In this document: in pieces, positions 20,931 through 59,395 of the stretch
Position numbering within the stretch: the first letter of the stretch is position 1
How the letters are laid out: the number at the start of each line of letters is the position of its first letter
Program-made: the position numbers and the translations under genes
Notes under the pieces: generated by a model
What the model was told of the DNA's origin: nothing
Databases searched by the model: none
What the model saw: only the letters and a program-made list of their open reading frames with translations
Assembly: GCA_024278985.1 (NCBI GenBank)
Contig: JAJRSC010000005.1
Span: 1 to 64,000, forward strand
Source: an archaeon
GTDB taxonomy: Archaea > AGJL01 > Methanococci > Methanococcales > Methanocaldococcaceae
Length of the DNA: 64,000 nucleotides
Direction of reading: 5' to 3'

Positions 20931-21449
20931 TTATTTTTTATTTTTTAGAACTTCTAAGATTTTCTCTAATATTATTTTATAAACTTCATCTCTATTACTT
21001 AATGTTAAATAATAAACTTTACCATAATCTTTAAACTCAGAGACATAGTTTCTATGTAGGGTGTAGATTTGTGGTTTATCAAGTTTTAATAAATCATATA
21101 TTTTTTCTCTAAATTTTTCACTTTTAAATTCCATTTCTCCAAGTTCATCAACTATTATTACATCCTTATCTTTAGCTCTTTCTAAGCAATTTAGTCCAAA
21201 AGTTTCAAGATTTTCAATAAACACCTTATATTTACCAACTTTTATCTTTCCTTCTCCAACATATGCTAATAATTTCTCTTCTCCAGTCTCCAAATCAACC
21301 ATTTTAAATCCAACTCTTTTATTATCTTTTCTAATTTCTTTTGTTATAAATCCTCCCACACTATAGCCCATTTCTTTAAGTTTATTTGCCAATTTTTCAA
21401 CTAATGTTGTTTTTCCAATTCCTGGGTCACTGGATATAAAGATTTTCAT
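20931..21449 (-). CDS. Nucleoside triphosphatase (THEP1 family)
   Basis: PGIGKTT, GGFITKEIR, VDELGEME. Confidence 0.9.
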   Translation of the reverse strand: MKIFISSDPGIGKTTLVEKLANKLKEMGYSVGGFITKEIRKDNKRVGFKMVDLETGEEKLLAYVGEGKIKVGKYKVFIENLETFGLNCLERAKDKDVIIVDELGEMEFKSEKFREKIYDLLKLDKPQIYTLHRNYVSEFKDYGKVYYLTLSNRDEVYKIILEKILEVLKNKK

Positions 21450-22741
21450 TTTATCAACTCTTCAAATTTAATCATTGCATTAATAACTTTATAATCCTCA
21501 AATGGTTTAGCCATTATTTGTAAGCCTACTGGAATTCCATTTATTTCTCCAGCTTTAACTGTCCCTGCAGGAAGACCACATAAATTGGCAATAACAGTTA
21601 AAACATCATAACTATACATTTCTATAGGAGTTAATTTTTCTCCAAGTTTATGAGGTAGTTTTGGAACAGTTGGAGCTAAAATAACATCAATATCCTTTAA
21701 TATTCTACTCATTTCTTTTCTCATTAAATTCCTTGCTTTTAATGCCTTTTTATAATATTTTCCACTATACTCTTTTTGACTAATTAAGGAACCTATAGTT
21801 ATTCTTCTTAAAACCTCTTCTCCACATACCTCTTCTATCCTATATCCATACCTTCTACCATCATATCTTCTTGTTGCTGAGAAAAATTCAACATAGTTAA
21901 TTAAGTAGTATGTTGGTAGTGCTAAATCTACATAAGGATAGTTAAGATATTCTATTTCACAGCCAATATCTTTAAAAATTTCAATACTTTTTTCTATTAT
22001 TTCTCTTATTTTTTTATCTGCTACATTTAAAAACTCTTCAACAACTCCAATTTTAAATTTCATATCTTTCTTTTCTATATCAGGAATATTAACTGTTGTT
22101 GTATCTTTTTAATCTTCTCCTTTAATAATATTCATAATATTTAAGATATCTTCTGAGTTTTTTGTTAAAGGTCCAATTTGGTCCAAACTCATAGCTAAAT
22201 CTGCTAATCCATATCTACTAACTACTCCATAACTTGGTTTAAATCCAACAACTCCACAATGAGATGCTGGATTTCTTATACTCCCTCCAGTATCTGAACC
22301 TAATGAAAAGTCACATAAATCTGCTGCAACTGCTGCAGCACTACCACTTGAAGAACCTCCTGGGATTCTATCCTTAGCAACCGGATTTTTTGTTGGACCA
22401 AAATAAGAAGTCTCCCCACTACTTCCACAAGCAAATTCATCCATATTTGTTATTCCAATTATCAAAGCTCCAGCTTCTTTTAGTTTTTCAACAACTGTCG
22501 CATTGTAAGGAGCAATATAATTTTCTAAAGTTTTAGAAGCACAAGATATTACAAAACCTTCAACATTGATATTTGCTTTTATAGCTACTATCTTCCCATA
22601 TAATGGTTTTTTCTTTGCTTTTTCATCTTTTTCTAACTTTTTAGCTTCATTTATAATATTTTTATTAATTTCTAAAAAAGCATTCAAATCTTTATTTTTT
22701 TCAATTTTGTCTAAATATTCCTCAACTTTTTCAACTATCAT
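21446..22741 (-). pseudogene. gatA: Glu-tRNA(Gln)/Asp-tRNA(Asn) amidotransferase subunit A, interrupted as sequenced by one in-frame TAA
   Basis: Amidase signature GGSSSGS, GSDTGGSIR. The two track ORFs are in frame, joined by GED*KDTTTVNIPDIEKKD with TAA at 22109-22111. Confidence 0.9.
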
Positions 22742-22751
22742 AATATCTCCC

Positions 22752-23744
22752 TCAGCAAACTCTTGGTATTGGGTCACCAATTGGTGGGTCTATAATTCTT
22801 TTTCCTATTCCTGTATCTAATAAAACACCCTTATGTTCTTTTGTAGCATATCCAATAATTTCTGCATTTTTTCCATATTTATGTTCTCTCAATATTTCTA
22901 AAACATCATTTGCATCTTTTTTATCAACAGCTATAATCACCTTTCCCTCATTTGCAATAATTAATGGATCTAAGCCAAGAATATCACATATTCCTTTAAC
23001 TTCCTCACTAATTGGTATTTTATCTTCATAAATTGTTATTCCAATTCCACTTTTCTCAGATAATTCATTTAAAGCATTTGCTAAACCTCCCCTTGTTGGG
23101 TCCTTCATTGCATGAACATTATAGTCTAAAATTGGTTCAATCATTTTATTTAATGGAGCTACATCAGATTTTATATTTATATCAAACTCAAAACCTTCCC
23201 TTTCTAATAATATTGCTAATCCATGCTCTGCAATGTTTCCAGATATGATAATAGCATCTCCCTCTTTAATATTACTGTCCTTACATAATTTTTTAACTAT
23301 TCCAACTCCAGAGGTGTTAATTATAATATCATCAACTCCATCACTAACCTTAGTATCTCCAGTTATAATTGGAACATCTGCCTCTAGAGATGTGTCATTT
23401 ATTGACTTCATAATTTTTTCTAAAACACTTGAGTCAAATCCTTCAGGAATTATAAATGAGAGAGTCAATGCTAATGGTTTAGCTCCAACAACAGACAAAT
23501 CATTAACTGTTCCTGAAATAGATAACCTCCCAATATCCCCTCCTCTAAAAAATATTGGTTTTACAGTATAACTATCTGTTGTAATGGCTATTTCATTGTT
23601 AAGTATATTTATTGTTGATGAATCATCTAAATCATCCAAACCTAAAGTTCCGGCTCTTTTTAATGTTAAATTATTTAAAATAATATCTTTTATTAATTCC
23701 TGCATTACACTGCCTCCAGCTCCATGAAGTTTTGTAATCTTCAA
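22752..23744 (-). CDS. hypE: Hydrogenase maturation protein HypE
   Basis: HGAGG, TGDTKV, DPTRGG, C-terminal PRVC. Confidence 0.96.
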   Translation of the reverse strand: MKITKLHGAGGSVMQELIKDIILNNLTLKRAGTLGLDDLDDSSTINILNNEIAITTDSYTVKPIFFRGGDIGRLSISGTVNDLSVVGAKPLALTLSFIIPEGFDSSVLEKIMKSINDTSLEADVPIITGDTKVSDGVDDIIINTSGVGIVKKLCKDSNIKEGDAIIISGNIAEHGLAILLEREGFEFDINIKSDVAPLNKMIEPILDYNVHAMKDPTRGGLANALNELSEKSGIGITIYEDKIPISEEVKGICDILGLDPLIIANEGKVIIAVDKKDANDVLEILREHKYGKNAEIIGYATKEHKGVLLDTGIGKRIIDPPIGDPIPRVC

Positions 23745-36146: not shown

Positions 36147-38228
36147 ATGGGTATTCTTGATAAACTTGGAGGAGGAAAAAAACCACCTAAAAAGAAATTA
36201 GATATATTTAAAAAAAATATTGATATTATTGAAAAAGATATTCTAAAAGAAGAGACCTTTAATGAGTATATTTTGGATAAATATAATGTAAAGGTTGATG
36301 AAATAGAATTTGAGATTATTATTAAAAGATTAAATGGAGATACATTTTATTATATCCCAGAAATTGAGTATATAAATGAAGCATTATCCCATCTTTCAAA
36401 AGAAAACCTAAACTTATTAAAAATACAAATTGGAGAATTGGGATTAATAGAATATCAACAAATAAAAAATTATACTATTGATTTTTTATCAAGATATAAC
36501 CTAAAAGTTCCTTATCCTGAATCTTTGGCAAAGTTTATTTATCTTACATCTGGAAGATTAGGATTATTAGAGATTCCTTTAAATGATGATTTACTTGAGG
36601 AAGTCATGGTTAATGGTTATGATGTGCCTGCCTTTGTTTTCCACAGAAAGTTTCAGATGTGTGAAACAAATATAGTCTTAGATAGAAATGAAGTTAATAG
36701 AATTATTGAAAGCATATCTAACTTAGTAAATAGGCCAATTGACTCAAGAGTTCCAATGTTAGATGCGTTTTTACCTGATGGTAGTAGAGTTAATGCAACT
36801 CTACCAGATATAACATTAAATGGGGCTACATTAACTATAAGAAAATTTTCTAAAACCCCATTAACTGCTGTAGATTTACTTAAGTATGGAACTTTTAATC
36901 TCGATGTTGCAGCATTCTTATGGCAAGCTGTTGAGGGTTATTTTGGAGCTAAACCAGCAAATACATTAATAGCTGGAGGTACTGGTTCAGGAAAGACAAC
37001 TCTTTTAAATATATTATCAATGTTTGCCATGTACAATGAGAGGATTATAACCATTGAAGATACTCCAGAACTTCAAATTCCACATAAACATGTTATAAAA
37101 ATGGTTACTCGTCCGGCAAGGCCTGGAATGCCTGAATATGAAATTACTATGAACGATTTAATTAAAAACGCTCTAAGGATGAGACCAGATAGAATATTTG
37201 TCGGGGAGGTTAGAGGAGAGGAGGCGTATTCATTACTTGTCGCTATGAATACAGGACATGATGGGGCATTAACAAAAAATGAAAATATCTACTTATCAAA
37301 TGGAGAAACCATCCATATTAATAAATTTGATAGATTTTTTAAGGGAGAAAATTCAATTAAAGAAAATAATGGATTTGAGTGGGTAAATATAGCTGACAAA
37401 GAAATATTTATTAAAAGCTTTAATAAATCAACATTAAAAATGGAAGATAAGTTAATATCAAGAATTTGGAGAAAAAGATATTCTGGAGAAATGATTAGAA
37501 TAACAACAAAAACAGGAAGAAAAATAACATTAACTAAAGACCATCCTGTATATATATTAAAAAATAATATTATATTTGAAATAAATGCTGAATTTGTTAA
37601 AATAAATGATAGAATAGCTCTACCAGAGAGTCATGATAACTATAATACTCCAAATATATTCTGGGATAAAGTTGTCAATGTTGAAGCAATATATTACAAT
37701 GGCTATATTTATGATTTAACTGTTGAAGATAACCATACATATATAGCTGGAAGTTCTGGAGGATTTATGGTCTCAAATTGTTCAGGAACTTTACATGCTA
37801 ATAGTGCTGATGAAGCAATATTAAGATTAAAAAGTCCTCCTATGAATGTTCCAGAAATTATGATATCAGCTTTAGATTTTATTATAAATATTCAGAGAAT
37901 TAGGAGAGGTGGAAAAACATTAAGAAGAATTTTAGGAATTGTCGAAATAGTAAAAGGAGATAAAGGAGAGGTTGCTAAAACTACATTATATGAATATAAT
38001 GGACTTAAAGATACATTAGAAAGACGTGGAGTTTGTATTTGGGAAGAAGAGGTTTGTGATATTGCTGGAATTAAAAGAGAAGACTTATTAATGGATATAG
38101 AAAGAAGAAAAAGAGTATTAAAATATTTATTTGAAAAGAACATAAATAAGTTAGAAGATGTAGGGCATTATATAAAAGAATACCAAATAGATCCTGATGG
38201 TTTATTAACTAAACTTAAAGGAGCTTAA
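36147..38228 (+). CDS. Type IV pilus/secretion ATPase (KlbA/TadA/CpaF family), intein-containing
   Basis: GGTGSGKTT, IEDTPEL, LRMRPDRIFVGEVRG, MNTGHDG|intein|CSGTLHA. Confidence 0.93.
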   Translation: MGILDKLGGGKKPPKKKLDIFKKNIDIIEKDILKEETFNEYILDKYNVKVDEIEFEIIIKRLNGDTFYYIPEIEYINEALSHLSKENLNLLKIQIGELGLIEYQQIKNYTIDFLSRYNLKVPYPESLAKFIYLTSGRLGLLEIPLNDDLLEEVMVNGYDVPAFVFHRKFQMCETNIVLDRNEVNRIIESISNLVNRPIDSRVPMLDAFLPDGSRVNATLPDITLNGATLTIRKFSKTPLTAVDLLKYGTFNLDVAAFLWQAVEGYFGAKPANTLIAGGTGSGKTTLLNILSMFAMYNERIITIEDTPELQIPHKHVIKMVTRPARPGMPEYEITMNDLIKNALRMRPDRIFVGEVRGEEAYSLLVAMNTGHDGALTKNENIYLSNGETIHINKFDRFFKGENSIKENNGFEWVNIADKEIFIKSFNKSTLKMEDKLISRIWRKRYSGEMIRITTKTGRKITLTKDHPVYILKNNIIFEINAEFVKINDRIALPESHDNYNTPNIFWDKVVNVEAIYYNGYIYDLTVEDNHTYIAGSSGGFMVSNCSGTLHANSADEAILRLKSPPMNVPEIMISALDFIINIQRIRRGGKTLRRILGIVEIVKGDKGEVAKTTLYEYNGLKDTLERRGVCIWEEEVCDIAGIKREDLLMDIERRKRVLKYLFEKNINKLEDVGHYIKEYQIDPDGLLTKLKGA
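37266..37778 (+). mobile_element. Mini-intein, 171 aa, Ala at position 1 (KlbA-type, class 2)
   Basis: Starts ALTKNE after GHDG; block B TKDHPVY; block F IYDLTVEDNHTYIA; ends VSN before Cys+1; no endonuclease domain. Confidence 0.92.
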
Positions 38229-42241: not shown

Positions 42242-43170
42242 AATAGTTCCTTTCTAAGTTCTCCTAAGGTAGTATTTATTTCAGCAAAAGCATTATGCCT
42301 ATGAATACTCTCAAAATTTATCTGTTTTATATGAACTTTTGTTTCATCTGGTAGATGGTTGAATTTTTTAACAATTCTGTTTGCCATTTCCCTAACACAA
42401 TCCTCTACAAATTTAGGGTTAGTATGGCTTTTTTTAACAACATATGCCTCATCTACTCTCTTCAATATTCCATAAATTTCTGCACTCATTGAATTTTTTA
42501 TTATATTAATAATATCTAAAATCTCAACATAATAATCTTCTGGAATTTCAAGAATTATTTTTCCAATTCCTCTTTGGTTGTGGGTTGCAAAAATAACACT
42601 ATCCAATATTTTTAAAATATCCTCATCACTAAATCCTTTATTTTTTAAATTTTCAATACATATTTCTTTTATTAAGTTCTGAGCACATGGGCATGCAGTT
42701 ATTCCAACAACTTCTGCTCCTACTATTTTAGTAATCTTTAAATTATCATTTTCTTTAATTCCTTTAGCCCCTCCAATTATTTTATGAACTTCTTGAGAGA
42801 TTTTTTTTGAGATTGGACTCTTTTCTTCTAACATAAAATCACTAATCATTAACACCTCAGCCCTATTTGCATATTCATGTTTCTTAAACAATCTTTTAAC
42901 AATTTCCTCACATATTGTTTCCATTTCATAACTCTCCATTTTTAATGCTTCATCAATTATTTCCTCTATAACTTCTGGATGCCTTGACATATGTATTCCT
43001 TTTTGGGAACTTGGTAAATTAACAGAAACATCAAAGGTTGGAAGTAATATTATAGGTCTTTTTCCATTTCTTTTTATTCTAACAAGTTTTTTTAAATTAG
43101 ATATACCAACCTTTGTTAAGGATATTTTTATATCTGGTTCTATATTTTGTATATCACATTTCCAATTCAT
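42238..43170 (-). CDS. mptA: GTP cyclohydrolase MptA (FolE2 family)
   Basis: KGIHMSR, TACPCA, THNQR, NPKFVEDCVR, ESIHRH. Confidence 0.94.
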   Translation of the reverse strand: MNWKCDIQNIEPDIKISLTKVGISNLKKLVRIKRNGKRPIILLPTFDVSVNLPSSQKGIHMSRHPEVIEEIIDEALKMESYEMETICEEIVKRLFKKHEYANRAEVLMISDFMLEEKSPISKKISQEVHKIIGGAKGIKENDNLKITKIVGAEVVGITACPCAQNLIKEICIENLKNKGFSDEDILKILDSVIFATHNQRGIGKIILEIPEDYYVEILDIINIIKNSMSAEIYGILKRVDEAYVVKKSHTNPKFVEDCVREMANRIVKKFNHLPDETKVHIKQINFESIHRHNAFAEINTTLGELRKELL

Positions 43171-44383
43171 TTTTATCCCCTAATAAAACATCAATTAACT
43201 CTCTTGATAGTCTATAATAAACATTGTTTCCTTTTCTTTCTTTATAAATATATCCCATTTCATAAATATCTGAAAGATGTGTTCCAATAGTTCCAGGAGA
43301 TTTTTTTAAATATTCTGAAAGTTGTGTTACTGTTGTACTACCTCCAAGTTTTGCCATAGCCTTAACAATTTCAGATTGAGCAGGAGTTAAATGGTTTAAA
43401 ATCTGATGTCCAATACTTATTCCCAAAGAATGTATTGCTTCACTAACAATTTTCTCATCTATTTTATTTAAGTTCTTTTTTATAGCTATTGATATAGATT
43501 CTGAACATGTCATTATTATTTTTCTTGGTATCCCATCACATAATTCAACAATTTTATCAATTGCCTCTCTAGTAAATGGTTCAAATTCTTCAGCCCCTTC
43601 TATATGAGCATCTTCTAATCTTCTCCTAATTAAGTCATATGATTCTTCTGTTGAAAGAGGAGGCATATTTATAATCTTTGGAATTCTATCCTTTATAGGT
43701 GGAGATATTTTAGTTAGGTCTTCCATCAATGTTGGAGAACCTGCTAAGAATGTTAATATTCCTTCTTCATATAAAAAAGAATGGAAAAATTGTAAGAGTG
43801 ATAAACAACTTTTCTTAGCAAATTGGTCAGCTTCATCTATTAAGATTATACATAATTTATTCCTATCTTTAACTTCATTAATTAAAAATTCTAAATCCCT
43901 CTCTATTCTCTCTCTTGGATAATGTATAGGAACTTTATCTCCATAGTTGTTTAATTTTTTGTACATATCAATTATTTTAGAGGAATACTCCAAATAATCA
44001 GATTTTATTGTTCCATTTATTGTAAATAAATTTTCTGTTAAAATATTGTATAGTAATTGGATTAAAAACTGTCTTGGAGTTATTTGTGATGCTGTAAGTT
44101 CTACGACCCAATGACCTTGTTTTTTTGTAGCATAGTATATAATATTAAGCATTGAACTTTTACCAATTCCTTTAGTTCCTACAATTGCTGCATTGGCAAC
44201 ACTACCATGCATTGCTGACCCTAAAATTTCTCCAATTTCTCTTAACTCACTAACCCTTCCAACAAAAAATTTTGTGTTTCCTCTAATAGGCTTTTCTGAA
44301 AATGGATTATACTTTAATTTAAGTTTATGCATAGTGTTTGTTATCGACCTTGCCGATTCTTGTATAAATTCAATTGGGTCCAT
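43154..44383 (-). CDS. AAA+ ATPase with C-terminal wHTH, distant Orc1/Cdc6-like
   Basis: FVGR, Walker A GTKGIGKS, Walker B LIDEAD, DGIPR lid, C-terminal wHTH. Confidence 0.85.
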   Translation of the reverse strand: MDPIEFIQESARSITNTMHKLKLKYNPFSEKPIRGNTKFFVGRVSELREIGEILGSAMHGSVANAAIVGTKGIGKSSMLNIIYYATKKQGHWVVELTASQITPRQFLIQLLYNILTENLFTINGTIKSDYLEYSSKIIDMYKKLNNYGDKVPIHYPRERIERDLEFLINEVKDRNKLCIILIDEADQFAKKSCLSLLQFFHSFLYEEGILTFLAGSPTLMEDLTKISPPIKDRIPKIINMPPLSTEESYDLIRRRLEDAHIEGAEEFEPFTREAIDKIVELCDGIPRKIIMTCSESISIAIKKNLNKIDEKIVSEAIHSLGISIGHQILNHLTPAQSEIVKAMAKLGGSTTVTQLSEYLKKSPGTIGTHLSDIYEMGYIYKERKGNNVYYRLSRELIDVLLGDKNELEM

Positions 44384-45004
44384 AAACTCACCACTAAATT
44401 ACTATCGTAATTAGAATATATGCACTTCGAAAATTAGAAACTTTCTATTTTAGAATTTCGTCAATTAACTAAATTTAAATCTATAAAATAATTTTTTATT
44501 TCTTTTAAAAACGTGAATATAATTTTATTACATTAAAAATATTGTGAATATAATTTTATTTTTTTGTATTTTATATTAATAATCCCTCAGAAATAAACTT
44601 TAATAATTTTACAATAAATATATAAACTATTCTTATGAAATAAAGTTTTTTTTAATTCTTCTCATGAGAATAAAAAATACATAAGTAAATATAAATTATC
44701 ATGAATCTAACATTTTTATAATATATAAACTATGAATCAAATTTTATTATAGTTATAACAAGTATAAAATATCTGAGATAAAAATAAAATAAAAAAAGAA
44801 ATCATTTTATATTAGAAATTATGTTGAGTTTTATCAAATCTATAAAAAATTGAAAATTATTTTCAATATTAACATAGTAATAAAAATCCATAAATTTATG
44901 ATAGTAAATTATAATATGAATCTAAAGGTATTTATATGATAAAAAGAAAAAATAATTGAGCAACTGTAAAGATAAAATATAAAATTTTATTAAAAAAATA
45001 AAAA
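44384..45004. other. AT-rich intergenic region with direct repeats (divergent promoters / candidate origin region)
   Basis: GTGAATATAATTTTATT x2 (44513, 44544); AATATATAAACTAT x2 (44617, 44720); palindrome TTCTCATGAGAA at 44659-44670. Confidence 0.55.
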
Positions 45005-45016
45005 TTGGTGATTAAT

Positions 45017-45544
45017 ATGGAAAGATTGCCATATGAGGTCGTATCAACTATATTCAGAAAAGCCATTTTACACTATTTAGTAATAACCGGACAAGTATTT
45101 CCTACAAAATTATCCAAAGATTTGGGTATATCAAAAGGACTCTCATCAGGGTTTTTAAGACTATGTAACGCTTTAGGTGTAGTAAAAAGAGAAAGAAACA
45201 AACATAAAGTTTTATATTCACTAACGGGTAAAGGAGTGGCAGTTTTAAAAAGATTAGCGCCCGAAATATTTGATTTAAGTTTTAGTGAGGTTTTCGAAAC
45301 ACTTTCGAAAAGTAAGTTTTCTACTAAACATTACCCATTAGCCAAGTTAGGATTTAGAATAGAGTATGAAGAAGATAACTTCAAGGGAGTGACTTTTTAC
45401 TTTTATGACTATGATAACAACCTTTTAGGAACGGTATATAGGAATTCTCAGAATATTTGGTGGTGTAGTATATGTAAAAAAGAGGCATGTAAGCATATCG
45501 ATTACGCCAAAAAGCTATATAATAAATTGAAAAATATAAATTAA
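45017..45544 (+). CDS. wHTH DNA-binding protein with C-terminal SWIM-like Zn finger
   Basis: PTKLSKDLGISKGLSS...YSLTGKG wHTH; CSICKKEACKH; ATG after GGTGA. Confidence 0.82.
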   Translation: MERLPYEVVSTIFRKAILHYLVITGQVFPTKLSKDLGISKGLSSGFLRLCNALGVVKRERNKHKVLYSLTGKGVAVLKRLAPEIFDLSFSEVFETLSKSKFSTKHYPLAKLGFRIEYEEDNFKGVTFYFYDYDNNLLGTVYRNSQNIWWCSICKKEACKHIDYAKKLYNKLKNIN

Positions 45545-45547
45545 TAA

Positions 45548-45924
45548 TTTTCGAGTTTTCGAGTTGCATGTATGTATATGCCACGGTTGTGTATATAGAA
45601 AATTTTTAGAAAAAAATTATCACAAAAATTTTAGGCAGTAGTATGCTCTTTTTTAGTTTAGATAATACAGTATTTTAGAGATTTTATAAAAATGTCAACA
45701 AATATTTTTTTGTTTTTGTGAAAAATAATAATTTGACATTATTATATTTTATAATTTTTATTTTATTTTATTTTTTTAATTTAACAAATAAATTTTTTAT
45801 AAAATTCTTTTATTGTACAAAAACAAAAATTAATAAAAAATTTTTGTTGTGATAATTTTGGTTTATGTGTTTTGTATATCTTTCCCTTAACCATATACAT
45901 ACATGCAATTCGAAAACTCGAAAA
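45548..45924. repeat. Nested inverted repeats flanking AT-rich core (candidate origin element)
   Basis: 33-bp arms at 45548-45580 and 45892-45924 (1 mismatch); 13-bp arms at 45613-45625 and 45847-45859; both pairs centred on 45736. Confidence 0.88.
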
Positions 45925-46027
45925 CCTTATTTAAAAAGTGATTATATTTATGTATCAACAATACACAAGTGTTTTTAAATTTCAAAAAAATAGTAATAAA
46001 ACATTTACCTTAAAATAGAAATATTTC

Positions 46028-47065
46028 CTATATATCACTCGAAAACTCGAAAATACAGCAGTCTAACAGAAATAGTGATATAAAAGAATTGTATTTATTT
46101 TTTTTGTATTTCCTCAATAATTCTATAAACTTAGGAGTATTTTTTTTCTTTAATTTAAACCTAATCTTACCTCTAACTTTGTATTTTGCTAAAATACCCA
46201 TATTACATAAATCATTTAAGTATTTATATAGTGTTATATATTTAAAATCTACTTTGTTATAAATATCTTCAATTTTAAAACTTTTTAGTTTAATAACTAT
46301 TTCAACAAGCTTTTTATATTTTCTATCAACTATGTAGGGAAGTATTTTAAGCCATGGAATTTTTAATTCTCTAATTGTTTTTAACTACCTTTTACAGTGT
46401 TTTAATATTATTTCAATTACTTCTAAATTACCATTTGTTATATTATAAAGATGTTCTGCTACTTTTCTACTAATACAATAGCCAAGTTTTTTAGCAAAGT
46501 ATCTAATAACTCCAATAATATTTATTATTCCTTCAGGAAAATGTTTTAAAACTTCTTTATGGCACTCTATAGGATACCTTAGAACAACACTTATATTATT
46601 TTTTCTTAGTTCTTTAACAAATCTTATAAAACTCTTTTTATAGTTCCATTTTCTAATGTCATGAATATCCAAAACAATAATTGGATTTATTGATTTTAAT
46701 ATAGCTAATAACTTACCTCTAACTTTATAAAAATCCCAATTTTTGATATTGATAAAAAACTCCTTTATAGCCTTAAACCATGCCTTTTTAGCTCTATAAT
46801 GTTTTTTAAAATATTTTTTTTCTACAATATAATTAAATAAATTTTCAAACCATCCAGAATTTTTATTAACTAAATAATATTTATCTTTTAATAAAAATGC
46901 TAATCTTAAAATTATCTTTTTAATGTTTGGAGTTCCCAATACTCTAAATATTGGAAATTTGTTAAAATAAAATTCACCACCCTCCTCTAAAATATTCTCT
47001 CTATGAGTTGGAAATAAATATAATCCATTAAAAAATTCTTCAGGTATATCTTTAATTATCATCAT
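46028..47065 (-). pseudogene. Degenerate AAA+-like/wHTH protein, interrupted as sequenced by one in-frame TAG
   Basis: Track ORF ends KHCKR* at 46385-46387, but the frame stays open for 118 more codons encoding a wHTH-like domain (YITLYKYLNDLCNMGIL...GKIRFKL). Confidence 0.7.
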
Positions 47066-58298: not shown

Positions 58299-59395
58299 GT
58301 TAAAATCAGACCGTTACGGTATGGAAACCTGATTACTTTAATTTTTTTAACTTCTTTTTTGTCTTGTTAAAATCAGACCGTTACGGTATGGAAACTTATT
58401 GATGAATTTGAATATTTTGATTGATGTATTGAGTTAAAATCAGACCGTTACGGTATGGAAACTATCTCTTTATTCTCATGCCTCTATCCCTCCATATTTG
58501 TTAAAATCAGACCGTTACGGTATGGAAACTTTAAATTTAAGAAAAACCCTGAATTATGGAAAAAAAGTTAAAATCAGACCGTTACGGTATGGAAACAAAT
58601 CAATTAATATATTTTTCTCACCATCAATTTCAGTTAAAATCAGACTGTTACGGTATGGAAACGACAATTAATCCTGAAGCCCCAGTAACAGTAATACTGT
58701 TAAAATCAGACCGTTACGGTATGGAAACCAATAAAAGATAAGAAAATATCAAAGCCATATTATTAGTTAAAATCAGACCGTTACGGTATGGAAACGCAAC
58801 TGCTATTAATATCCCTGCTCCAAGCAATATTGTTAAAATCAGACCGTTACGGTATGGAAACATCAAAATATTCAAATTCACCAATAATAAAAATCAAAAG
58901 TTAAAATCAGACCGTTACGGTATGGAAACTTAACAAGTTTTTTAGTTTTTGATATTAAATTATCTGTTAAAATCAGACCGTTACGGTATGGAAACAATAT
59001 TTTTTTTAGATATATAATATATGATGGGGTAGTTAAAATCAGACCGTTACGGTATGGAAACATCAAAATATTCAAATTCACCAATAATAAAAATCAAAAG
59101 TTAAAATCAGACCGTTACGGTATGGAAACATTACATTATCATAATGAGAATATAAAAGAGGTGAGGTTAAAATCAGACCGTTACGGTATGGAAACCAGTT
59201 TTTTGTATGTTCTTCATATTGTCTTTCTTTTAGTTAAAATCAGACCGTTACGGTATGGAAACATAAAATTACAGCATTACAACTCTTGCTGTAATAAAGG
59301 TTAAAATCAGACCGTTACGGTATGGAAACTTTTTTATTGTTGAGGTTAGCATATCCTCATTTGGCGTTAAAATCAGACCGTTACGGTATGGAAAC
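58299..59395 (+). CRISPR. CRISPR array, 17 repeats / 16 spacers (36-38 bp)
   Basis: 30-bp repeat GTTAAAATCAGACCGTTACGGTATGGAAAC; repeat 6 has one C>T; 3' ATGGAAAC handle and leader give + orientation. Confidence 0.99.

Follow-up and report, generated by a model that had tools for sequence, protein, structure and literature searches.

A conserved inverted-repeat element near the Mc-pRIP gene of Methanocaldococcus as a candidate replication-origin core

The 64,000-nucleotide stretch analyzed here (positions 1 to 64,000 of contig JAJRSC010000005.1, hereafter the window) carries an inverted-repeat element at 45548-45924. With slightly more confidence than doubt, we favor the reading that this element is the core of a chromosomal replication-origin region, in which two modules resembling the archaeal origin recognition box (ORB) enclose an unwinding element, as a lineage-specific variant of the archaeal plan. 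The window is Methanocaldococcus chromosome, with archaeal 23S, 5S, and RNase P RNAs and ~27% GC outside the ribosomal RNA (rRNA). A first-pass annotation, made from the letters alone, had proposed an origin-like site at this position, and the proposal is supported by the conservation of the element at the orthologous locus, by the lack of another copy in 220 kb and of a target-site duplication, by boxes that are not ORBs in sequence, and by the initiator-like neighbors. The parts of the element and its third, short copy are listed below, with invariant columns counted over five Methanocaldococcus genomes.

45548-45580, minus strand: outer box L, the left arm (nhmmer 45547-45586, E 2.8e-11; 28/33 columns invariant)
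45581-45612, no strand: left spacer, 32 nt, its length kept and its sequence not (5/32 columns invariant)
45613-45625, plus strand: inner box L, AAAATTATCACAA (8/13 columns invariant)
45626-45846, no strand: AT-rich core, candidate unwinding element, 87% AT (73/228 alignment columns invariant)
45847-45859, minus strand: inner box R, exact reverse complement of inner box L (6/13 columns invariant)
45860-45891, no strand: right spacer, 32 nt (4/32 columns invariant)
45892-45924, plus strand: outer box R1, the right arm (nhmmer 45885-45924, E 2.4e-10; 28/33 columns invariant)
46038-46053, plus strand: short box R2, CTCGAAAACTCGAAAA, two heptads after TATATATCA (E 0.002)

The outer arms are 33 nt long, complementary at 32 of 33 positions (97%), and 311 nt apart, giving a whole element of 377 bp; R2 follows 129 nt beyond R1 in the window. 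Read on the minus strand, the consensus of outer box L is CATATACATACATGCAACTCGAAAAYTCGAAAA, with two TCGAAAA heptads on its outer side, distal to the core. The overall consensus of the box is CATATACATACATGCAACTCGAAAAYTCGAAA, again with both heptads facing outward and with the CATACATAC part and a purine-rich tail facing the core. The arms, the inner 13-mers, and the third copy all lie where the first-pass annotation had placed them, and its exact 32-nt non-matching spacers were also recovered, being complementary to each other at 13 of 32 positions only. The core, described there as very AT-rich, stands at 87% AT against 72% for the window and reaches 95% within 45738-45838. Inverted 33-nt arms 311 nt apart around a core of 84-87% AT agree with the layout of an archaeal origin.

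The outer repeat greatly exceeds what chance would produce. Between 45000 and 46500, the longest inverted repeat allowing no more than a single mismatch measures 33 nt, where 200 dinucleotide-preserving shuffles gave a mean of 14.6 and a maximum of 20. Likewise, the 64 kb hold three occurrences of the 16-mer CTCGAAAACTCGAAAA at two mismatches or fewer, always at the element (0.01 expected; none of 100 shuffles reached three). The inner 13-mer is not significant on its own (two matches against 0.97 expected, with 26 of 100 shuffles reaching two) and carries weight because of its symmetric placement and its conservation in relatives.

The spacer that holds the element (45545-46027, intergenic region 2 or IGR2) lies between the 3′ ends of two convergent genes, its right border being set by a gene that ends at 46028. 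The earlier description of a site between convergent genes was correct. With the right-hand gene ending at 46028 and not at 46385, R2 falls inside the last codons of that gene (peptide IFEFS).

To follow the element in relatives, genomes were scanned with an alignment of 16 proteins of the Mc-pRIP family, whose gene lies close by, and nine loci were obtained (L001-L009). Six of them span the element spacer: L002-L005 from Methanocaldococcus, and L008 and L009 from Methanothermococcus, in which Mc-pRIP is 71-72% identical. The remaining three are uninformative, as L006 and L007 stop just upstream of Mc-pRIP, before the spacer, and L001 (Methanocaldococcus indicus) is without synteny. The gene order in the six loci is ORC-like gene, spacer, winged helix-turn-helix (wHTH) gene, spacer, Mc-pRIP, MptA, ATP-grasp, and TFE, except that L009 has no ATP-grasp or TFE match. 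The first-pass annotation had regarded absence from the orthologous locus as fatal to its reading; the inverted box pair was found in all six informative loci, across two genera.

The counts of invariant columns in the five Methanocaldococcus genomes make the arms (28/33 each) the best-conserved DNA of the region, above the spacers (5/32 and 4/32), the inner boxes (8/13 and 6/13), the core (73/228), and the neighboring coding sequence (162/372). Box-to-box distances in the seven genomes are 361, 362, 362, 362, 364, 356, and 358 nt, where the core sequence is only about half identical and the R1-to-R2 stretch ranges between 129 and 175 nt; the core has thus kept its length while its sequence drifts. 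The ATYRCAA half-site of inner box L sits at element position 73-74 in all five Methanocaldococcus genomes, and the two Methanothermococcus loci have AATTATTY-type motifs near the inner-box positions, less regularly placed. At inner box R, L003 and L005 carry a second half-site, ATYRCAA, 8 nt after TTGYRAT, forming a palindrome-like pair. Just inside the right inner box, the aligned counterpart of a block at 45806-45840 is conserved in all six relatives of both genera (TATTGTG.AAAAAA.TATAATAATATAAT), the window being the most divergent; this block could be promoter-like or the site of first melting.

A box profile was built from 14 arms of seven sources, so that those 14 were recovered by construction; each of the seven sources spanning the spacer has exactly one inverted pair. 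No further full-length box was found in the window and the nine loci (220,331 bases), the next match being R2 (E 0.002), and the copy-number check proposed with the first-pass annotation accordingly gave no additional full copy within these bases.

Short copies of the box recur nearby. Six of the seven genomes have R2, in which TATATA stands before the heptad pair, at 129-175 nt beyond R1; L005 has lost it. Another short box, P, stands at the promoter of the Mc-pRIP gene, and the window and L002-L009 all have a comparable box within 47-106 nt of that gene's start. In the direction of the gene, P is directly upstream of a TATA-like run, and a box of the origin itself at the promoter of the initiator gene is the arrangement that would be expected for autoregulation. 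A perfect TTCGAAAATTCGAAA double heptad was also seen inside the ATP-grasp gene of L002 (12456-12477) and of L003, L004, L005, and L006, ~2.5 kb from the Mc-pRIP start in these five relatives; the window is without it.

The genes and sites surrounding the element are the following.

43154-44383, minus strand: Mc-pRIP gene (MJ0774-type), AAA+ ATPase with a C-terminal ArsR-type winged helix
44427-44440, plus strand: short box P, TCGAAAATTAGAAA, with ATATATGCAC before it, lying 44-57 nt ahead of the start codon of Mc-pRIP
44505-44925, minus strand: motif cluster of the spacer IGR1, the Methanococcaceae ORB motif of the literature in five direct copies (RTGAATMWA in plus-strand reading) at 44513, 44544, 44701, 44732, and 44916
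45017-45544, plus strand: wHTH zinc-motif gene, 175 aa, stop codon 3 nt before box L
46028-47065, minus strand: ORC-like gene of an orphan Methanococcales family, a 345-codon frame with an in-frame TAG at 46385-46387

The origin reading is strengthened by two of these neighbors, the Mc-pRIP gene, which starts 1.16 kb from the element with only the wHTH gene between, and the abutting gene for a protein of predicted ORC/Cdc6-like fold. Mc-pRIP scores above the cut-offs of the Pfam families AAA, AAA_16, AAA_22, ATPase_2, and HTH_5, with GTKGIGKSS as Walker A and ILIDEAD as Walker B. Its C-terminus matches the ArsR-type HTH_5, not the lid and winged helix of the Cdc6 type. The closest named relative is that of M. 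indicus (92% identical), and the named relatives all belong to Methanococcales. Downstream of Mc-pRIP in the window lie the genes for MptA, an ATP-grasp protein, and TFE-alpha, which we take to be the order of MJ0775-MJ0777 in M. jannaschii. Mc-pRIP, with MJ0774 as its type member, is described in DoriC 5.0 (PMC3531139) and by Gao in 2014 (PMC4009838) as a putative initiator of replication in Methanococcales, and both use it to predict origins there.

The right-hand neighbor had been listed as an open reading frame (ORF) at 46385-47065, which is the front part of the gene only; the true end is at 46028, and relatives have one frame of 351-355 codons. The family counts 36 proteins, with named matches only in Methanococcales, and its profile retrieved seven representatives among 1.84 billion proteins. 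At the place of Walker A, the protein has ATPxLKKT, a degenerate form, and at that of Walker B IIVFDVHD; weak Hda_lid matches were obtained in both sequences tested. An AlphaFold model from a six-sequence alignment (predicted local distance difference test, pLDDT, 74.1; predicted template modeling score, pTM, 0.63) has a predicted AAA+-like fold followed by a lid and a winged helix. Compared with the PDB, this model gave 14 matches at E ≤ 0.001, of which 12 are ORC, archaeal Cdc6/Orc1, or OCCM chains (5uj7, 7jpq, 1fnn, 2v1u, and others), the other two being CED-4 and the Pyrococcus ATPase PAB2304. The predicted fold is therefore likely of the ORC/Cdc6-like class, although the match is not tight, given template modeling scores (TM-scores) of 0.16-0.28. 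Low TM-scores often arise when domain orientations differ. By sequence, no significant PDB match was obtained for the family (best E 2.9), a profile comparison with Mc-pRIP aligned the winged helix only (probability 9%), and PADLOC and PHROGs gave winged-helix-level matches or none. The M. jannaschii member is presumably MJ0772, judging from the gene order. Neither the box strings nor MJ0772 and MJ0773 were found in the searchable literature, and no mention of a neighbor protein of ORC/Cdc6 fold was found in the literature searched.

Several further observations concern the TAG codon of this gene. The M. infernus homologue has its full length (346 aa), eight of 62 window genes use TAG as an ordinary stop, and separate C-terminal fragments of the family (121 and 126 aa) exist in protein collections. 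The codon could be a real nonsense mutation, the mark of a split gene, or an assembly error.

The wHTH protein carries an invariant C-terminal C-x2-C-x4-C-x-H motif and belongs to a family of 19 proteins with named matches only in Methanococcales. Profile searches gave weak matches to ArsR-type repressors (E 0.003-0.04) and a non-significant one to the partition protein AspA (E 0.6-0.7). No Pfam family was matched at E ≤ 0.01, nor was SWIM up to E 5 in the two orthologues scanned (L002 and L008). The structure model was poor (pLDDT 53.6), which makes its PDB fold search, with no matches at E ≤ 0.001, meaningless; the Atlas matches, a PadR-named archaeal cluster (0.93) and SWIM (0.76), serve as leads only.

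If the element is an origin core, it might work as follows. Two inverted recognition boxes of ~33-40 bp would flank an AT-rich unwinding region in an ORB(-)/DUE/ORB(+) layout, where DUE stands for DNA unwinding element. Initiator-type proteins encoded by the neighboring genes, with Mc-pRIP and possibly the ORC/Cdc6-fold protein as candidates, would bind the outer boxes in opposite orientation, and another domain or another protein would bind the inner 13-mers at their fixed 32-nt offset. The AT-rich core would then be opened and MCM loaded between the boxes, with the strictly kept distance of 356-364 nt setting the geometry. The short box at the Mc-pRIP promoter could let the same reader regulate the synthesis of the initiator.

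A bolder version goes further, and we advance it tentatively, thinking it possible and on the unlikely side. It holds that the palindromic module of IGR2, and not the published motif cluster of IGR1, would be the true oriC of Methanococcales, read by a lineage-specific initiator set of Mc-pRIP together with a second ORC/Cdc6-fold protein that has a degenerate ATP site, and possibly with the wHTH protein, in place of the Orc1/Cdc6-ORB system. Here the bipartite box would consist of the heptad pair and CATACATAC, with the inner 13-mer at +32 nt, and helicase loading would owe its geometry to the box-to-box distance of ~360 bp.

A number of points weigh against an origin at the element. The AT-richness of its core is ordinary for the spacers of this genome: the least stable 100-bp stretch ranks only ninth among the separated low-stability windows of the 64 kb, so that the duplex-destabilization check suggested with the first-pass annotation does not distinguish the core. 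Duplex stability and AT-richness were dropped as origin marks, eight other spacers being equally or more unstable. A skew switch at 45.7 kb is not significant (p = 0.23-0.65), the direction of the third-position skew fitting an origin in a window of 64 kb that is too short for this measure, and the raw cumulative skew has no inflection there. The canonical ORB consensus, at up to three mismatches, has no match in the window, as the first-pass annotation had said in calling the sequence non-ORB, and the Methanobacteriaceae mini-ORB 13-mer gave six matches against 15.9 expected, none at the locus.

The neighboring proteins and the wider setting also count on this side. Mc-pRIP is only remotely Orc1/Cdc6-like: it remains below the cut-offs of the Orc1/Cdc6 models (38.6 against 181.3 bits for TIGR02928, 20.7 against 501 for NF001625, and 20.5 against 27 for PF24389), and its profile retrieves no solved Orc1/Cdc6 by sequence at E ≤ 0.01. 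Its role as an initiator is itself a putative one, proposed in silico. The ORC-like gene has its premature TAG in the window where relatives have Glu, and the low TM-scores of its product come from a model built on six sequences. The element is not in the spacer adjoining Mc-pRIP, the wHTH gene lying between, and of 17 window matches to the published Methanococcaceae motif, five fall in 44505-44925 on one strand and none in 45545-46060, where the element is. In M. indicus (L001), the Mc-pRIP gene is elsewhere, with no boxes within 21 kb. According to two reviews (PMC5333045, in a table, and PMC3984812), no origin of Methanococcales has been validated, that of M. jannaschii being predicted only; a paper on an experimentally mapped Methanococcales origin was not found in the literature searched.

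The M. indicus locus deserves a description of its own. In strain SL43 (L001, 8867-11215), an unrelated 369-aa gene ends 24 nt upstream of Mc-pRIP, the usual neighbors are all missing, and the TTTTCGAR motif was not found in the 21 kb around it. The chromosome of this strain still encodes homologues of both flanking proteins, so in M. indicus the putative initiator gene is separated from the box-bearing locus.

Among the alternatives, the boxes could form a protein-binding array that has nothing to do with initiation, serving as operators or as chromosome-organization or centromere-like segregation sites for the flanking winged-helix proteins. We hold this to be unlikely, though it has several observations on its side: two winged-helix genes restricted to Methanococcales flank the element, the half-site pair of L003 and L005 is of the palindrome-like kind that dimeric winged-helix regulators prefer, a short box stands at a promoter, and the wHTH protein has the weak ArsR-type matches and the non-significant AspA match given above. 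Yet it is the 3′ ends of two convergent genes, and not their promoters, that hold the sites, the kept distance of 356-364 nt around an AT-rich core has no obvious use in an operator, and the neighbors include two AAA+/ORC-like proteins.

It is rather improbable, in our estimate, that replication instead starts in the adjacent spacer, IGR1 (44384-45004, between Mc-pRIP and the wHTH gene), with the palindromic element as an accessory site, for example an initiator-titrating, regulatory, or fork-related one. IGR1 directly adjoins Mc-pRIP and is 85.5% AT. The motif given for Methanococcaceae ORBs by Ori-Finder 2, TT[TA][GT]ATTCA[TC][GA]AT[AT]T[AT]T[AT] (PMC4164010), has 17 matches in the window, and five of them lie in IGR1, all on one strand. 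As these matches fall in IGR1 and none in the element, the published prediction and the element are two different, adjacent, ordered spacers. The spacing of the copies (30-31, 156-157, 30-31, and 182-184 nt) is rigid and kept across two genera, in the window, L002-L004, L008, and L009, and L005 keeps four of the five copies at the same spacing. Zhang and Zhang are said to have placed oriC1, in 2004, in a 687-bp spacer next to MJ0774, and in L002, from a close relative of M. jannaschii, IGR1 with its 675 bp is nearer to that length than IGR2 with 521 bp. Against a start in IGR1, its five copies are all direct, with no inverted pair around an unwinding region, and no other repeats of the locus equal the arms in IGR2 in length and conservation. 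Moreover, the published motif was, according to PMC4164010, derived by motif discovery on predicted DoriC regions and not from binding data. Between the motif pairs of IGR1, at about 44580-44670, lies a well-conserved block of ~90 bp that holds the palindrome TTCTCATGAGAA.

Much less probable still is that the arms are kept by pairing with each other, as a DNA cruciform or a long transcript stem, and not by protein reading. Standard pairs make up 90.9% of the 231 cells of the arm alignment, eight of 33 pairs show substitutions in both arms, and none of 500 shuffles and no slid control attained the covariation score of 0.215. Single-stranded DNA folds are also below those of shuffled sequences, with z-scores of -11 for the window, -4.3 for L009, and -4.2 for L008. 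Such covariation and persistent hairpin potential may point to selection for a hairpin, which would count against the origin reading. Two sites tracking a single reader that evolves with them would explain both just as well. Covariation among seven related sequences can indeed stem from their relatedness or from the concerted evolution of sites with one reader. The lineage variants of the heptad (a T variant in L002 and L004, a CC variant in L008) are partly shared by R1, R2, and P, copies of the same orientation that are unable to pair with one another. In L009, arm-to-arm identity has gone down to 22/35 with both heptads retained, and the fixed spacing to the inner boxes was counted in favor of sequence reading over pairing. 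The loop of more than 300 nt at 84-87% AT is unlike the structured RNAs of this genome, and a structured RNA is unlikely because the core has ~13% GC, against 54% for the rRNA stretch in a genome of hyperthermophile type, and because there is no Rfam match near threshold. A known RNA family was set aside: the element has no match at the Rfam gathering score, and 44300-46200 has only three, of chance level (E 0.33-0.58).

Finally, the reading as a miniature inverted-repeat transposable element (MITE) or another mobile relic with terminal inverted repeats is close to refuted: the 33-nt repeats (32 of 33 positions matching), with an AT-rich interior that is non-coding between them and 377 bp overall, are common to this element and to MITEs, but no target-site duplication is present (the flanks ATAAATTAATAA and CCTTATTTAAAA differ, in agreement with the first-pass annotation), the element occupies the same place in all six informative loci of two genera, its arms are 85% invariant against 12-32% for the interior, no second full copy exists in the 220 kb searched, none of 63 ORFs scanned belongs to a transposase or integrase family, and the plasmid collection gave one AT-rich chance match only and the phage collection none.

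Returning to the reading as an origin core, the element may be compared with known systems. Like the ORB/DUE origins of archaea such as Sulfolobus oriC1 and Pyrococcus oriC, it has two long inverted repeats around an AT-rich region, extra short copies of which one stands at the promoter of the putative initiator gene, AAA+ or winged-helix initiator-like neighbors, and a position kept in relatives. It differs in that its box is unlike the canonical ORB, with two directly repeated TCGAAAA heptads in the place of a dyad, in the additional inner box at a fixed 32-nt offset, in its place at the 3′ ends of convergent genes, and in a putative initiator that is only remotely Orc1/Cdc6-like. The wording ORB(-)/DUE/ORB(+) for this pattern is that of the Ori-Finder-Arch preprint (bioRxiv 10.64898/2026.08.15.744077), where a figure legend has the oriC of M. 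jannaschii fitting it. With the predicted Mc-pRIP-adjacent oriC, as presented in PMC3531139, PMC4009838, and PMC4164010, the element shares the neighborhood and the putative initiator family; the published motif, though, marks IGR1 with five direct copies, whereas the element is in the next spacer and has a longer, inverted box. The WhiP-type oriC3 of Sulfolobus, with its IR(+)/motif/IR(-) arrangement of inverted repeats (IR) recognized by a winged-helix initiator, can be likened to the element by the description in the same preprint, as both have inverted repeats enclosing motifs and winged-helix genes alongside. Its repeat consists of TAC triplets, unlike that of the element, and no WhiP homologue was identified here, no test of relatedness having been made.

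Elsewhere in the window, positions 1-1591 hold the 23S rRNA (3′ part) and the 5S rRNA, with the gene for RNase P RNA (1334-1591) immediately after them. A GatA-like amidase gene (21446-22780) is split by an in-frame TAA at 22109-22111, the two ORFs matching the two halves of the Pfam Amidase family. The gene for a type II/IV secretion-type ATPase (36147-38228) contains an intein splicing domain at residues 417-534. A CRISPR array (58299-59395) has 16 repeats matching Rfam CRISPR-DR13, and a wider gap within it (58596-58699) suggests one diverged repeat that was not called.

We know of no recognizable Orc1/Cdc6 in Methanococcales. The start of replication in this order is called "an intriguing unknown" in a review (PMC3984812). 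The locus described here provides a concrete, conserved candidate for it, in which a box pair, an unwinding region of fixed length, a short promoter box, and three candidate binding proteins are found side by side. To judge from this locus, the motif on which origin-prediction software now relies for Methanococcaceae may mark a neighboring element rather than the recognition boxes. As genetic tools exist for Methanococcus maripaludis, testing would be feasible.

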